From a bacterium (GTDB taxonomy: Bacteria > Joyebacterota > Joyebacteria > Joyebacterales > Joyebacteraceae), in the NCBI GenBank assembly GCA_029990205.1, contig JAPEKQ010000002.1, positions 96,845-160,844 on the forward strand: a DNA stretch of 64,000 nucleotides, written 5' to 3'. The position numbers and the translations under genes are program-made. Positions 1-58,176 of the stretch are shown in pieces. The notes beneath the pieces are model-generated. The model saw nothing but the letters and a program-made list of their open reading frames with translations, made no database searches and had not been told where the DNA came from. Each line of letters opens with the position of its first letter. Within the stretch, counting starts at the first letter, position 1.

Positions 1-810
1 CTTGGCCTCGACGATGAGTCCGAGATGTTCGATGGCGAGGCGGAGTCGCTCGGCGAGCGTGGGTTCGGGCGGCACCTTCCCCGTGGCGATGAGGGCGGCT
101 GCGCGCGAGAAGAGCCACGGGTTCCCGACCGCGCCGCGTCCGATCATCACACCGTCGACTCCGGTCTCCTCGAGCATGCGGAGCGCGTCCTCGGGCGTCT
201 TCACGTCACCGCTCCCGATGACGGGGACCGAGCACGACCGCTTGACCTCCGGCAGGAGGCTCCAGTCGGACACGCCCTTGAACCCCTGCGAGCGCGTCCT
301 CGGATGGACCGTGATCGCGGCAACGCCAAGCTCGCCGAGCATTCCCGCGGCCTCGGGCGCGTTGATCGAGCACTCGTCCCACCCGCTCCGGATCTTGACG
401 GTGACCGGGAGCGTCGTCGACTCGATGACGGCCTGGACGACGTCGCGAAGAAGCTCGAGATCCTTCATGAGCGCGGCGCCCGACGTCGACTTAACGACCT
501 TCTTGACCGGACAGCCCGCGTTGACGTCGATGGCGTCGGGTTTCAGCGCCGCGGCGCGGCGCGTCGCCTCGGCCATCGACTCCGGGCGGCTCCCGAAGAG
601 CTGGAACGCGATCGGCCGCTCCTCCTCGTGGAACGCGAGAAGCTCGAACGTCTTCCAGCTGTTCCGGATGGCGCCCTCGGCGCTGACCATCTCGGTCCAG
701 ACCATGGACGCGCCGTTGCGCCGGCAGAGCCTGCGCATGGCGCTGTCGGTCAACCCGGCCAGGGGCGCGAGGACGAGCGGAGGATCGACGGAGATGTCTC
801 GAATCAGCAT
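1..810 (-). CDS. dus: tRNA-dihydrouridine synthase (partial; 3' end runs off the window start)
   Basis: Not in the supplied ORF track. My manual minus-strand translation from ATG 808-810 gives MLIRDISVDPPLVLAPLAGLTDSAMRRLCRRNGASMVWTEMVSAEG...DVNAGCPVKKVVKSTSGAALMKD...VHPRTRSQGFKG...GRGAVGNPWLF. This is the Dus FMN TIM-barrel signature, and the frame stays open to position 1. Confidence 0.85.
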   Translation of the reverse strand, partial: MLIRDISVDPPLVLAPLAGLTDSAMRRLCRRNGASMVWTEMVSAEGAIRNSWKTFELLAFHEEERPIAFQLFGSRPESMAEATRRAAALKPDAIDVNAGCPVKKVVKSTSGAALMKDLELLRDVVQAVIESTTLPVTVKIRSGWDECSINAPEAAGMLGELGVAAITVHPRTRSQGFKGVSDWSLLPEVKRSCSVPVIGSGDVKTPEDALRMLEETGVDGVMIGRGAVGNPWLFSRAAALIATGKVPPEPTLAERLRLAIEHLGLIVEAK

Positions 811-53718: not shown

Positions 53719-55197
53719 CTAGAAGTAGGTCGTCAGTCTGACGCGCGCACCCGAGAACTCCGGCTCGACGCGGCAGACGCCGCCCGAGCACTTGAGACCG
53801 CCGCGCTCGCTTCCGATCGACACGCCAAGCTCGAGGTCATCTCTGAGAATGCTCTTCACCTCGAACATCGCCCAGACACTCCGGTCCTCGGACTCGTCAT
53901 CCGTTCCCTCGACAACCGACGCGAAGGTGATGCCGGACGACGTGTAGACGGTCATCGCGACGAGGTAGTCGAGCGATACCGTCTCGGCGATGTCGGTCGT
54001 CTCACCGGCCTGCACCTGGAGCTCCATCGGCTGACCCGACGGCAGCGGCAGGATCACTTCCGCTCCGGCCGTCTTGTGCTCGATGAACTTGCCGAGTTCG
54101 TACTCGCGGGACCAGGCGGCTCCGGCAGAGAGTGACGTGTCACCGATCCACGCGTCGGCCTGCCCGAACATCTCCCAGTGCGCCAGGTCGGCGTCGTGGT
54201 TCCTCGCCTCCGACGCCCCGCCGAGGACGGTGACGCTCTCTCCGAGCGGCACGGTCGCCTCGACAAGATACCCGCGCTCGTCGTTGAGCTTCGGCTCGTA
54301 GGTCGCGCGGTTCATCAGCGTCCAGAGATGCTCGCGTACGGCCGTCGGCGGATTGACCAGGAAGTGCTGGAACCGGTCGTAATCCTTGTACTCACCGAAC
54401 AGCGTTGCCCACGGCAGCTCGACCGTCGCCGTGACATAGGTGGCATGACCCTCCATGTCATCGATCTCGAGTTCTCCGTCGTCGCCCTGACGCCCGACAT
54501 ACTCGCCCGCCAGCGACACCGGACCGAGCCACGCATTCACCTCACCGCCCAGAAGCAGGTCCTCGGAGCGCCCGAGTGACTCGGTAACGATCGGATCGTC
54601 GTCTTCCTTGTTCGACGCCCGCTCAACGACGCTTCCCGCGATGTCGAGCCAGCTCGCGACCGAGCGGGTCGCGCGAACAGCGCGAACGTTGTGCCTGCGA
54701 TACCTCGTCTCGGACAGCGGCTCGTCCACGGAACCCGCCAGCACGGTCACATCGGCGGCCGAGAACGAATACTCACCGAGCAGGCCGTCGAGCACGGTGT
54801 CGTGCTCAAGATCAACATCCTCGAAGCTCCTCAGAGCCAGCCCGCGACCGAACGTCGAGTAGAAGTGTCCCACCCGCAGGTGGAGATTCTCACGGTCGAG
54901 CGCGGCGTACCGGTGCTTGATCTCGGACTCCGGGATGTTCACGCCAGCCGGGTTGTATGTCGGCAGCGAGAGCTGGTAAGCGCGGTAGACGGCGCCCACG
55001 GTCAGCGGACCTATGCCGGCATCGACTTCGAGTCTGGCGTCGAAGGCGGACGCCTCCTCCCCCGTATCGAAGAGATACTCGCCGGTCACCGCGCCGCTCG
55101 ACCAGGCTCCGTCATCGGCCGAGGCTATCGCCGGCGCGACGGACATGAGTCCCGCAACGGCGATGCAAAGGAGGACTCGTCTAGTCAACGGCTCCAT
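53719..55197 (-). CDS. outer-membrane beta-barrel protein (family not recognised)
   Basis: ATG 55197. Signal peptide MEPLTRRVLLCIAVAGLMSVAPAIASA. Alternating-polarity strand pattern throughout, with C-terminal ...RVRLTTYF (aromatic terminus typical of BAM substrates). Confidence 0.62.
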   Translation of the reverse strand: MEPLTRRVLLCIAVAGLMSVAPAIASADDGAWSSGAVTGEYLFDTGEEASAFDARLEVDAGIGPLTVGAVYRAYQLSLPTYNPAGVNIPESEIKHRYAALDRENLHLRVGHFYSTFGRGLALRSFEDVDLEHDTVLDGLLGEYSFSAADVTVLAGSVDEPLSETRYRRHNVRAVRATRSVASWLDIAGSVVERASNKEDDDPIVTESLGRSEDLLLGGEVNAWLGPVSLAGEYVGRQGDDGELEIDDMEGHATYVTATVELPWATLFGEYKDYDRFQHFLVNPPTAVREHLWTLMNRATYEPKLNDERGYLVEATVPLGESVTVLGGASEARNHDADLAHWEMFGQADAWIGDTSLSAGAAWSREYELGKFIEHKTAGAEVILPLPSGQPMELQVQAGETTDIAETVSLDYLVAMTVYTSSGITFASVVEGTDDESEDRSVWAMFEVKSILRDDLELGVSIGSERGGLKCSGGVCRVEPEFSGARVRLTTYF

Positions 55198-55762
55198 CCT
55201 CGTTGACGGCCGCTTCCTCGGTCTCAGCCTCGTCGCCCTCGTCCGGACAGTCCTCGGGGATGAGCGCCGCGACGGCGGCGTCCAGTTCCGCGTGGTTCGT
55301 CGGCCGGTACCCGGTGACCGCCCACGCGACCGTCCCATCCTGCCTCACGAGAACCGTGCGCGGGACCGACGTCACGTGGTACTTCTTCGCGACGGCCATA
55401 CTCGGGTCGAGCAGCACCTCAAAGGTGTTGCCCTTCGAGGCGATGAACGGCTTCACCTTCGAGGTCGAACGAGGTCCGTCGATCGAGATCGCAACGACCG
55501 TCAGACCGCAGTCTTCGTATTTGTCAAAGAGCTCCTGCAGATCCGGAAAGGCCTTGATGCACGGCTTGCACCACGTGGCCCAGAAATCAAGGACAACCGG
55601 TCCATCCTTCAGCAACTCAGAGAGCGTCACATCTTCGCCGTCGATGTTCTTCAGCGTGAACTCGGGCGCCTTCGCATTGGCGCCGTATGACATAGTCGTC
55701 CCCATCAACACGAGGACGGCCGCGCACAGAAGTGCGAGTCCGGTTCGTCTCCTGCCGGTCAT
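55181..55762 (-). CDS. TlpA/ResA-type periplasmic thiol:disulfide oxidoreductase
   Basis: Signal peptide. PEFTLKNIDGEDVTLSELLKDGPVVLDFWATWCKPCIKAFP. Confidence 0.85.
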   Translation of the reverse strand: MTGRRRTGLALLCAAVLVLMGTTMSYGANAKAPEFTLKNIDGEDVTLSELLKDGPVVLDFWATWCKPCIKAFPDLQELFDKYEDCGLTVVAISIDGPRSTSKVKPFIASKGNTFEVLLDPSMAVAKKYHVTSVPRTVLVRQDGTVAWAVTGYRPTNHAELDAAVAALIPEDCPDEGDEAETEEAAVNEDGAVD

Positions 55763-56721: not shown

Positions 56722-56900
56722 GAGCGACTCCAGGGCTGTTTCGGCTGACCGCCGGCGGAGGAACGCCGGCTCGAGGCGGTCGCAGTATAGGATGTTCGGC
56801 TCGCGAGTGTCAACGGCAATCGGGGCCATCCAGAGGATGACCCCGACAGAATCTCAGATGGCCACAACGCTGCGTTCCTGCGCCGGCCCGCGGCGTCCGC

Positions 56901-57293
56901 TCAGGCCACGATGACGACTTCGGTCCCGACCTCGACGGCCGCAGCGAGACGCGTGAGTTCCTCGTTCCGCATCCGTATGCAGCCGCGGCTCGACTTCGTC
57001 CCGATCGAATCGGGCTCGTCCGTCCCGTGGATGCCTATCCCCTCCCACGGCGGGCAGTCCAGCCGCAGGAAGAGTGGGCCGTACGAAAGCCTGCCCGCAT
57101 GCTCCCAGTCGCCTGAGTCCTCGATGGACACGATTCGGAACGTCCCCTCGGGAGTCCGACAGTCCCCGACCGCCAGCTTGTCCCCCGCATCGGGGTTCGA
57201 GCCGATGCCGATCGTGAATCGCTCGGTCCCCGCGTCGGTGACAAGCTCGAGCGCGAACTCGGACTTCCTCACGATGATGCGCGAGGCGCTCAT
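56901..57293 (-). CDS. L,D-transpeptidase (YkuD) catalytic domain protein without a signal peptide
   Basis: TPEGTFRI...GIGIHGTDEPDSIGTKSSRGCIRM (His/Cys catalytic motif). The domain starts at residue 5 and there is no hydrophobic N-terminus. Confidence 0.85.
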   Translation of the reverse strand: MSASRIIVRKSEFALELVTDAGTERFTIGIGSNPDAGDKLAVGDCRTPEGTFRIVSIEDSGDWEHAGRLSYGPLFLRLDCPPWEGIGIHGTDEPDSIGTKSSRGCIRMRNEELTRLAAAVEVGTEVVIVA

Positions 57294-57421
57294 CGATCAG
57301 TCTCCGGGCTCTGCTCGCTGCGGCTCTGCTGCGTCGTCTCGTGCGTGCTCTTCTGCGTCGCCTCCTCTGCTCCCTGTTCTGTGGTGTTCACCCGCTCCGC
57401 GGGTTCGCATGAACCGCGGAG

Positions 57422-57517
57422 TCAGGTCGACACCCCCAGACGGGGCAGGATCACAAGCTGCAGCAGAAGCCAGACCGCCACGAACGCGATCGGCAGCGCC
57501 AGTTCGCCCATCCTCAT
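57422..57517 (-). CDS. 31-codon single-TM micro-ORF ending at UGA (possible recoding site)
   Basis: AAGGAG lies 10 nt before ATG 57517. Peptide MRMGELALPIAFVAVWLLLQLVILPRLGVST. About 87 percent of third positions are G/C. The UGA at 57422-57424 is followed at +1 by an 11-bp hairpin. Confidence 0.4.
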   Translation of the reverse strand: MRMGELALPIAFVAVWLLLQLVILPRLGVST

Positions 57518-57591
57518 CGTCCACCCGCTCCTTGATCGAACCGTGTGTCGCCCGGACACTCTCCGGGCTACCTGGATGCTCTCCGGTCTAT

Positions 57592-58176
57592 CTAGATGTT
57601 CTCCGCGCCGCCCAGGAGCATCTCGATCTCGGACCGCATCTCGGGACGCATCTCGTTGGAGAAACCGATGTGCTTGGCTGCGATGCGACCGTCGCGCCCG
57701 ATGATGAACGTCGTCGGAATACCGCTGACCTTGTACGCCTCACCGACGGTACGGTTGCCAACGAGAATCGTGTAGTCGATGCCGTTGCTGTCGACGAACG
57801 GAGCGAGATCCGTCGCGCCACCCTGGTCGAGGCCGACGATCTCGAGCCCCTGCTCTTCGAACTCATCGTAGAGCTCTATGAGGAACGGGATCTCCTCGCG
57901 GCACGGCGGACACCACGTCGCCCAGAGGTCGAGCACGACGACCTTGCCATCGAAATCGCTCAGCGAGACTTCCTCGCCGTCGAGATTCGGAAGCACGAAC
58001 GCCGGCGGGAACTCACCCACGTTGACGCCGGTCTCCTCGGAGGTTTCGGGGCTGTCCATCGCGACGGTCTCGTCCGCCGTCGTCGCGGCCTCGTCCGTCG
58101 AGCCGCTGCACCCGCCGAGGATGCCGACGGCGAACAGGGCGATCAGCGCGAAGGCCACTGCGTTTCTCATCTTCAT
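57592..58176 (-). CDS. TlpA-family thiol:disulfide oxidoreductase lipoprotein
   Basis: Lipobox GILGGCSG. VVLDLWATWCPPCREEIPFL. Confidence 0.85.
   Translation of the reverse strand: MKMRNAVAFALIALFAVGILGGCSGSTDEAATTADETVAMDSPETSEETGVNVGEFPPAFVLPNLDGEEVSLSDFDGKVVVLDLWATWCPPCREEIPFLIELYDEFEEQGLEIVGLDQGGATDLAPFVDSNGIDYTILVGNRTVGEAYKVSGIPTTFIIGRDGRIAAKHIGFSNEMRPEMRSEIEMLLGGAENI

Follow-up and report, generated by a model that had tools for sequence, protein, structure and literature searches.

A 64,000-nt stretch of bacterial DNA (the window: positions 96,845 to 160,844 of contig JAPEKQ010000002.1, assembly GCA_029990205.1) carries on its minus strand a small gene whose coding sequence contains an in-frame UGA codon and whose stop overlaps the start of a gene for a YkuD-domain protein. 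Comparison with related loci leads us to read positions 57517-57290, with considerable confidence, as one gene encoding a 75-residue single-pass membrane selenoprotein in which the UGA specifies selenocysteine (Sec, U). The decoding mechanism appears to be the standard bacterial one, and the protein family, which is widespread and stands in databases almost wholly as 29-32-residue pieces ending at the UGA, appears to be new. A first-pass annotation of the window had taken the same pieces to resemble a transmembrane anchor, a linker and a YkuD enzyme split by one UGA and one frame change, and had named four possible explanations. Sec insertion at a UxxxxC motif, one of the four, is supported by the invariance of the UGA, by homologues with cysteine in its place, by a second Cys at +5 and by a conserved small RNA helix. 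Coordinates (Table 1) are window positions, and those of the small gene and the YkuD gene are read on the minus strand.

The 31 codons from ATG 57517 (MRMGELALPIAFVAVWLLLQLVILPRLGVST) are mostly hydrophobic and end ...LPRLGVST, followed by TGA 57424-57422. The frame then stays open for 43 codons to TGA 57292-57290, which overlaps the YkuD ATG 57293-57291 (ATGA). The product has the order transmembrane helix, ...LPRLGVST-U-LRGS-C, hydrophilic tail. The first-pass annotation had placed all of this correctly: the Shine-Dalgarno sequence with its 10-nt spacer, the start, the hydrophobic codons, the UGA, the read-through frame and the overlap. GGAG-like purine runs lie within 20 nt 5' of the equivalent start in most orthologous loci, and W16, Q20, L24, P25, G28 and T31 are invariant in the N-terminal part (alignments A2, A3, A7).

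A scan of one genome per species recovered 27 close loci, labelled Candidatus Eisenbacteria or unclassified metagenome-assembled genomes. The small gene is present in all recovered close loci but L014, and L027 is a more distant locus without it; 25 of the recovered genome loci together with the window form the 26-locus set used below. The window layout was found again in 25/26 other Eisenbacteria-type genome loci, and the arrangement of micro open reading frame, UGA and YkuD gene is more than chance. Within the set the small frame is exactly 31 codons long and starts 8 codons before the invariant Pro in 26/26 loci, the codon after GVST is TGA in 26/26, and this is followed by [L/M]-[R/K]-x-x-Cys and a variable hydrophilic tail whose frame is open to the YkuD start in 26/26. 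The tail stop overlaps that start (as ATGA, TGATG or TAATG) in 26/26 loci, with L012 as the exception. Nine lengths, from 68 to 131 nt, occur between the UGA and the YkuD ATG, and each is 2 mod 3, so that every change in tail length is a whole number of codons. The small gene and YkuD lie in different frames in 26/26 loci, always with the same -1 offset, at a YkuD identity of 60-90%.

Two of these loci deserve separate mention. L012 (3850-4100) is the only Eisenbacteria locus whose read-through frame does not end where YkuD begins; relatives have a tail about 22 nt longer, and that of L012 enters YkuD in another frame. In L014 (JALGZD010000219.1, 3950-4400) codons 1-11 of the small gene are fused in frame to codon 6 of YkuD, the resulting protein P0021 begins LRLGDIVLPLIIVRKS..., and nothing is left of the rest of the selenoprotein gene, through a natural deletion or else a mis-assembly.

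The UGA holds its position well beyond these genomes. A first profile was made from the Eisenbacteria sequences with Sec written as Cys, and it matched 153 proteins, almost all of 29-32 residues and ending ...LP[RK][LM]GVST. A metagenome scan keyed only on V[VI]LP[RK][LM]GVST returned 80 loci, and the next codon was TGA in 80/80. Stop usage in the window is mixed (34 TAG, 24 TGA, i.e. ~40%, and 1 TAA among 59 open reading frames with high third-codon-position GC, GC3), so an ordinary stop would not always be TGA. At E <= 0.001 an exhaustive HMMER search returned 803 matches from 1.84 billion cluster representatives. Among 252 family proteins that were retrieved, 206 end exactly at the motif, i.e. 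at the UGA point, and 18 continue with Cys at the UGA position, 16 of these 18 having Cys again at +5 (T-C-x4-C); the other residues found there are W (16), G (2), R (3), S (2) and K (1), and four proteins lack the motif. Real Cys codons were confirmed in the DNA of the Cys forms L085 (TGT) and L167 (TGC), and the one W form checked in DNA (L166, 109-273) has TGA there, the W matching a code-4 translation. Further W or G forms at the Sec position stand among database proteins P0242-P0370; code 25 would give G. The family's UGA may mislead the automatic choice of genetic code.

After the UGA, metagenome loci show three kinds of tail: mostly [aliphatic]-x-x-x-Cys, a AVPQKGPGRPNKKC-stop subfamily, and a few LSPRGC. 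In the U-x4-C subfamily the Cys codon at +5 has TG invariant with C or T as its third base in 71/71 sequences, and position U+1 holds an aliphatic residue in nearly every case (mostly Leu or Met), specified by several different codons. The sequence after the UGA is coding. A UGA that never varies, Sec/Cys pairing among homologues and a further conserved Cys close by make up the usual comparative signature of a selenoprotein.

Some observations on the wider family stand by themselves. The U-AVPQKGPGRPNKKC-stop tail, with Cys as its last residue, was seen in metagenome loci L103, L105, L112-L114, L120-L124, L126, L128, L129, L135, L141, L145 and L160; in a few loci of this kind a small helix GGNCC-CGGGCA-GGNCC covaries. 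P0243, a database protein of 592 residues, is highly repetitive with a period of ~66 residues and has eight matches to the family profile (VVLPKMGVRTKRSLRASERC).

Two hairpins compete for the RNA after the UGA in the window. The first, described in the first-pass annotation as 11 bp with one bulge and as no obvious terminator, reads CUCCGCGGUUC-AUGC-GAA(C)CCGCGGAG and is real and stable: with short flanks it folds at -35.9 kcal/mol against -21.5 +/- 3.1 for shuffles (z = -4.7; 0/200 as stable), and no terminator-like site was called at it. The second is a smaller helix, ACCCGC-GGA-GCGGGU (+21 to +35), whose apical loop GGA (57398-57396) has its first base 23 nt after the UGA. Per-sequence folds place a hairpin directly after the Cys codon in most members. 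In a gap-free MAFFT alignment of 71 distinct U-x4-C sequences, the helix +19..26/+30..37 (loop +27..29) has 66.5% of its cells paired against 51.6 +/- 1.4% in shuffles (0/500 reach this), a covariation of 0.371 against 0.174 in shuffles and 0.08-0.19 in slid controls, and double-sided changes in 7/8 pairs. The corresponding values for the 11-bp hairpin are 49.2% against 46.3% in shuffles and 0.158 against 0.138, with slid versions equally high. On these counts conservation does not extend to the 11-bp hairpin. It occurs only in the window and its nearest relatives, competes with the smaller helix, and owes its existence to a chance complementarity between the Leu-Arg codons CUC-CGC and the GCG-GAG of the conserved helix.

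The smaller helix resembles a bacterial Sec insertion sequence (SECIS). Taking the bacterial consensus quoted in PMC13188914 as the test (a perfect stem of >= 5 bp whose loop lies 16-37 nt from the UGA and has G in its first two positions), we found a fitting hairpin in 67/94 family sequences, 113/811 ordinary TGA stops from the same loci and 218/1880 shuffles. The commonest loops of the SECIS-like hairpins are GGA, GUC, AGGU, AGUU and GGUC. The objections that had been raised to Sec insertion, a loop too close to the UGA and without a leading G, are correct for the 11-bp hairpin and do not apply to the conserved minihelix. Removal of the first 15 nt 3' of the UGA, which we assume to be about the stretch covered by a ribosome at the UGA, makes the minihelix the minimum-energy fold in the window. 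In L001 (3870-3935), L002 (3870-3935) and L086 (628-690) the minihelix is present twice, through a 24-nt tandem duplication in the tail (peptide ...PAEQVDAEPAERV...); there the 5' CUCCGCGG forms its pairs with the second copy, and the first is left free.

Several results weigh against a selenoprotein. The window minihelix has only 6 bp (-9.8 kcal/mol, z = -1.6) and must compete with the far more stable long hairpin. RNAalifold found no consensus helix in ungapped alignments of 71 and 26 sequences, because in about one third of the sequences the hairpin lies a few bases earlier or there is a 3-nt insertion; the evidence for the helix rests on counts for named structures, per-sequence folds and control sets. 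Rfam has no match in the small-gene region. Our covariance model R1 reaches E < 0.05 only at the small-gene UGA site within family loci, an outcome that follows largely from its construction and is not counted as independent evidence. The tail is weakly conserved and its GC3 bias is weaker than that before the UGA (A/T-ending codons 10/43 after it, as the first-pass annotation had counted, and 4/31 before), and the Cys at +5 is missing in L083 and in the AVPQKGPGRPNKKC subfamily. Finally, neither the 64-kb window nor 0.95 Mb of related loci yielded selA, selB, selD or tRNA-Sec: ARAGORN gave no tRNA-Sec in the window, Pfam searches of 20 further window genes gave no sel genes, and a tblastn search of the window and 168 loci with E. 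coli SelA, SelB and SelD had one generic GTPase as its only match. A scan of the window for a second selenoprotein gene (an in-frame TGA with coding-like GC3 flanks) found none, at thresholds that missed the small gene too. Two other ways of recoding were considered and rejected. Reassignment of UGA (code 4 or 25) fails since UGA ends many ordinary open reading frames of the window, YkuD included, and a programmed -1 frameshift joining the tail to YkuD fails since no slippery heptamer precedes the overlap. ATGA and TGATG overlaps are ordinary coupling signals.

The best surviving rival to Sec insertion would yield the same protein with Trp or Cys at residue 32, through low-level suppression of the UGA by a near-cognate tRNA, independent of SelB and stimulated by a 3' hairpin. 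We consider it improbable. In its favour, a UGA followed by C counts in general as a leaky stop context, the window has a very stable hairpin at +1, and the sequence searched yielded no Sec machinery. That hairpin, however, is not conserved, and what is conserved is a small helix with a G-first loop at the SECIS distance; many family members have UGA-A or UGA-G rather than UGA-C. Had Cys or Trp been intended, a sense codon would be expected, yet the Cys forms are a minority (18 against 206 short forms), and the U-x4-C motif beside a conserved Thr resembles a redox site.

Slightly less probable again is a 31-residue membrane micro-peptide or leader that truly ends at the UGA, the RNA downstream being a terminator, an attenuator or a protein-binding element; the first-pass annotation had included a leader with an attenuator among its explanations. 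The 29-32-residue form is what the databases hold, and a hairpin does follow the stop. The short peptide is probably also made, since Sec decoding is incomplete even in E. coli, for which a 2015 study gives a recoding efficiency of 30-40% (PMC4513850). Against a true end at the UGA, the hairpin lacks a U-tract and no terminator-like site was called; the RNA element stays constant while the downstream genes differ between lineages. The open reading frame continues in the Cys-form homologues into the same x4-C motif, the tail changes by whole codons only, and the stop is TGA in 106 loci, never TAG or TAA.

The YkuD gene itself is a separate, conserved gene and not a fragment. Its PF03734 match (cut-off 23.4 bits) begins at residue 5, which leaves no room for an export signal, as had been noticed in the first-pass annotation; the frame has neither signal nor transmembrane segment and so departs from the exported or anchored L,D-transpeptidase architecture. 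H89, G104, C105 and R107 are invariant in 34 aligned YkuD sequences (catalytic His89 and Gly-Cys105-x-Arg), and the closest solved relative is B. subtilis YkuD (1y7m, E = 9e-9). The search found 431 homologues, of which the best 120 are nearly all 130 residues long, with the same start and 60-90% identity. The GGAG at 57302..57305 would serve as the ribosome-binding site. A leaderless YkuD protein need not be a broken gene, since ElsL (NCBIfam NF040925), a cytoplasmic L,D-carboxypeptidase of the YkuD family, lacks an export signal as well. The window protein is not an ElsL orthologue: it scores 26.9 bits with that model (cut-off 270), over ~40 residues around the catalytic Cys.

Distant YkuD relatives in other phyla (L029-L080; 41-56% identity; Synergistaceae, Bacteroidales and others) are for the most part equipped with an N-terminal signal or transmembrane segment of their own, followed in several by a Pro/Glu-rich linker. 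No in-frame stop-x4-Cys signature was found in these N-terminal extensions, in which the Cys form of the motif was not searched. The leaderless form is thus a feature of the Eisenbacteria-type orthologues. That the small gene and YkuD are the remains of one exported L,D-transpeptidase, decayed or mis-assembled through a nonsense mutation and a frameshift, is scarcely credible and is already contradicted by the comparative data: the leaders and linkers of distant relatives and the fusion in L014 speak for it, but the two-gene layout, the UGA and the -1 offset are kept in 26/26 loci, the YkuD orthologues (best 120 of 431) have kept their length, the small gene occurs without YkuD in most other lineages (YkuD is 10/40 downstream neighbours), and the L014 fusion, lacking most of the transmembrane helix and the whole tail, is a deletion and not the ancestral state. 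Neither the split gene nor the pseudogene or assembly error of the first-pass annotation is borne out, errors being unlikely to recur in 26 independent assemblies.

For the selenoprotein we propose the following course of events. Translation would start at ATG 57517, giving first an N-tail that is short and acidic or neutral and then a single transmembrane helix. K+R and D+E number 35 and 93 in the N-terminal flanks, and 142 and 40 in the first 15 residues after Leu-Pro, which by the positive-inside rule predicts the N-terminus outside and the C-terminus in the cytoplasm; Trp16 and Gln20 inside the helix suggest helix-helix contacts. With a ribosome on the UGA, the 5' arm of the long hairpin would lie inside the ribosome, and the 3' arm would be free to form the minihelix. 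The UGA would then be decoded as selenocysteine, likely via a SelB-type factor that delivers Sec-tRNA(Sec) on the minihelix 57404-57390. The pair Sec32-x4-Cys37 would sit at the cytoplasmic membrane face, probably cycling between selenol/thiol and selenenylsulfide. A weakly constrained hydrophilic tail would follow, ending at the TGA that overlaps the leaderless YkuD ATG, and YkuD translation would probably be partly coupled to completion of the selenoprotein; failed recoding would leave the 31-residue peptide, with the coupling to YkuD lost.

The surroundings of the gene (Table 1) are redox-related, with an ArsR-type regulator, a thioredoxin and a TlpA-like gene. The TlpA/ResA-like protein encoded directly upstream has a lipoprotein-type signal (...ILGGC) and a WCPPC motif, and in the 26 Eisenbacteria-type loci its C-terminal part is encoded in the 450 nt upstream. 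Elsewhere the small gene keeps other company, a persulfide-dioxygenase-like gene included. Among the genes upstream of it in 67 other loci are ribosomal protein L17 (15), thioredoxin-fold proteins (10-11), rhodanese (6) and MarR/ArsR-type regulators; the L17-adjoining loci are probably the KKC-tail (AVPQKGPGRPNKKC) subfamily. Downstream, redoxins and DUF302 also occur, and YkuD at only 10/40 marks the YkuD link as specific to Eisenbacteria. L083 has a CsoR-like regulator, a beta-lactamase-fold plus rhodanese protein, a rhodanese, TauE, a pyridine-nucleotide disulfide oxidoreductase and DUF302; an RND (resistance-nodulation-division) efflux pair lies near the small gene in L081, and an ArsR-like regulator and a ferredoxin in L167. 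These neighbourhoods point to thiol, persulfide or metal(loid) redox handling as their general theme.

Table 1. Window coordinates of the small gene, its RNA elements and flanking features
Feature	Position	Strand	Basis or remark
ArsR-type regulator	58985-58644	-	
Thioredoxin	58573-58241	-	
TlpA/ResA-like thioredoxin-fold gene, directly upstream	57592..58176	-	AhpC-TSA/Redoxin and ResA matches
Shine-Dalgarno AAGGAG	57528..57533	-	10 nt 5' of small-gene ATG (57517-57515); read from sequence
Small gene, complete (proposed)	57290..57517	-	31 codons + UGA (Sec32) + 43 codons + stop TGA; 75-residue product
N-terminal 31 residues: short tail and one predicted transmembrane helix	57425..57517	-	alignments A2, A3, A7
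UGA, probably read as selenocysteine (residue 32)	57422..57424	-	TGA invariance and Cys codons in homologues
11-bp hairpin of the first-pass annotation	57395..57421	-	3' arm common with minihelix
UGC, Cys37, conserved partner of putative Sec32 in U-x4-C motif	57407..57409	-	
SECIS-like minihelix ACCCGC-GGA-GCGGGU (+21 to +35)	57390..57404	-	fold and covariation
GGAG inside small-gene tail	57302..57305	-	8 nt 5' of YkuD ATG; read from sequence
Leaderless 130-residue YkuD-domain gene	56901..57293	-	Pfam PF03734, 69.4 bits; ATG overlaps small-gene stop
12-bp inverted repeat I2, after YkuD stop	56820..56846	-	possibly end of transcription unit
Sigma-70-like TTGACA-18-TATACT	56813-56784	-	precedes deoxynucleoside kinase gene

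From the inverted repeat and the promoter-like sequence after it, the deoxynucleoside kinase gene probably starts at ATG 56722, not 56829, with a promoter of its own. Next come a second TlpA-like gene and a DUF6029 protein, whose beta-barrel-like open reading frame (53719-55762, minus) overlaps that TlpA-like gene by ~158 nt; the true DUF6029 start is probably further downstream, near the signal-like MEPLTRRVLLCIAVAGL. Between the upstream TlpA-like stop and the small gene, at 57547-57571, lies a 10-bp inverted repeat (GCCCGGA...TCCGGGC) that L001, the closest relative, lacks; two copies of CCGGAGAG are also found nearby. The RNA genes of the window are tRNA-Gln and tRNA-Glu, with no Rfam family besides tRNA.

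In its decoding signals the small gene resembles known bacterial selenoprotein genes, of which E. coli fdhF with SelB is the prototype: an in-frame UGA and a small stem-loop inside the coding sequence, an apical loop with G then G/U placed 16-37 nt from the UGA (PMC13188914), homologues with Cys, and a nearby Cys that makes a redox-type motif. It differs from them in that the SECIS-like helix of the window overlaps a stronger alternative hairpin and in that SelB is a presumed partner. Among eukaryotic selenoproteins, SELENOK and SELENOS are small and single-pass in the endoplasmic reticulum membrane, and SELENOS pairs its Sec with a Cys. They share with the small protein a single helix on the N-terminal side and a hydrophilic, probably disordered cytosolic tail with the Sec. 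The likeness is one of architecture alone: no similarity of sequence was detected, the Sec lies at the membrane boundary here and near the C-terminus there, and the SECIS lies in the coding region here and in the 3' untranslated region there. MerT has several transmembrane helices. The MerT-like selenoproteins (PF02411; PMC13188914) are, like the small protein, bacterial membrane proteins with a Sec/Cys motif and, in some loci, ArsR/MerR-type regulators and metal or sulfur genes nearby, but their motif is C/SxxU and no PF02411 match was found here. The nearest motif is the LULAxC of TsoA (NF045695, listed in PMC13188914), which has U-L-A-x-C, with Cys at +4, where the small protein has U-L-R-x-x-C, with Cys at +5; NF045695 matched neither the Sec-to-Cys forms at E <= 1 nor the natural Cys forms at E <= 5.

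The family is not among the 119 prokaryotic selenoprotein families of a 2026 review (PMC13188914), and none of the 119 listed names suggests such a protein in a list that gives names and motifs, not architectures. Pfam and NCBIfam have no match to the small protein, either in the Sec-to-Cys substituted form or in the natural Cys form. A literature search that did not take in Haft and Tolstoy 2025 or the BSepDB supplements found no paper that links selenoproteins with Eisenbacteria or describes the small family.

If our reading is correct, a family that gene callers truncate at 29-32 residues or miss altogether joins the prokaryotic selenoproteome, and with it a very small single-pass membrane selenoprotein with its Sec at the membrane boundary. 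Its UGA form misleads annotation, some pipelines having used genetic code 4 and apparently also code 25. The puzzle of a split gene in the window would be replaced by two intact genes, and a Sec/Cys redox motif is given a possible link to the thioredoxin-fold genes beside it and to a leaderless YkuD enzyme. A further proposal, which we put forward only tentatively and think unlikely to hold in full, is that these proteins of ~45-75 residues form a new and widespread class of single-pass membrane selenoproteins, an architectural counterpart of SELENOK and SELENOS, and that in Eisenbacteria expression of a cytoplasmic cysteine peptidase of the YkuD type is gated, by way of the ATGA/TGATG overlap, by selenium-dependent completion of the protein, or that the protein tethers or redox-protects this peptidase. 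If this were true, cell-wall peptide metabolism in these bacteria would be linked to selenium or redox status.

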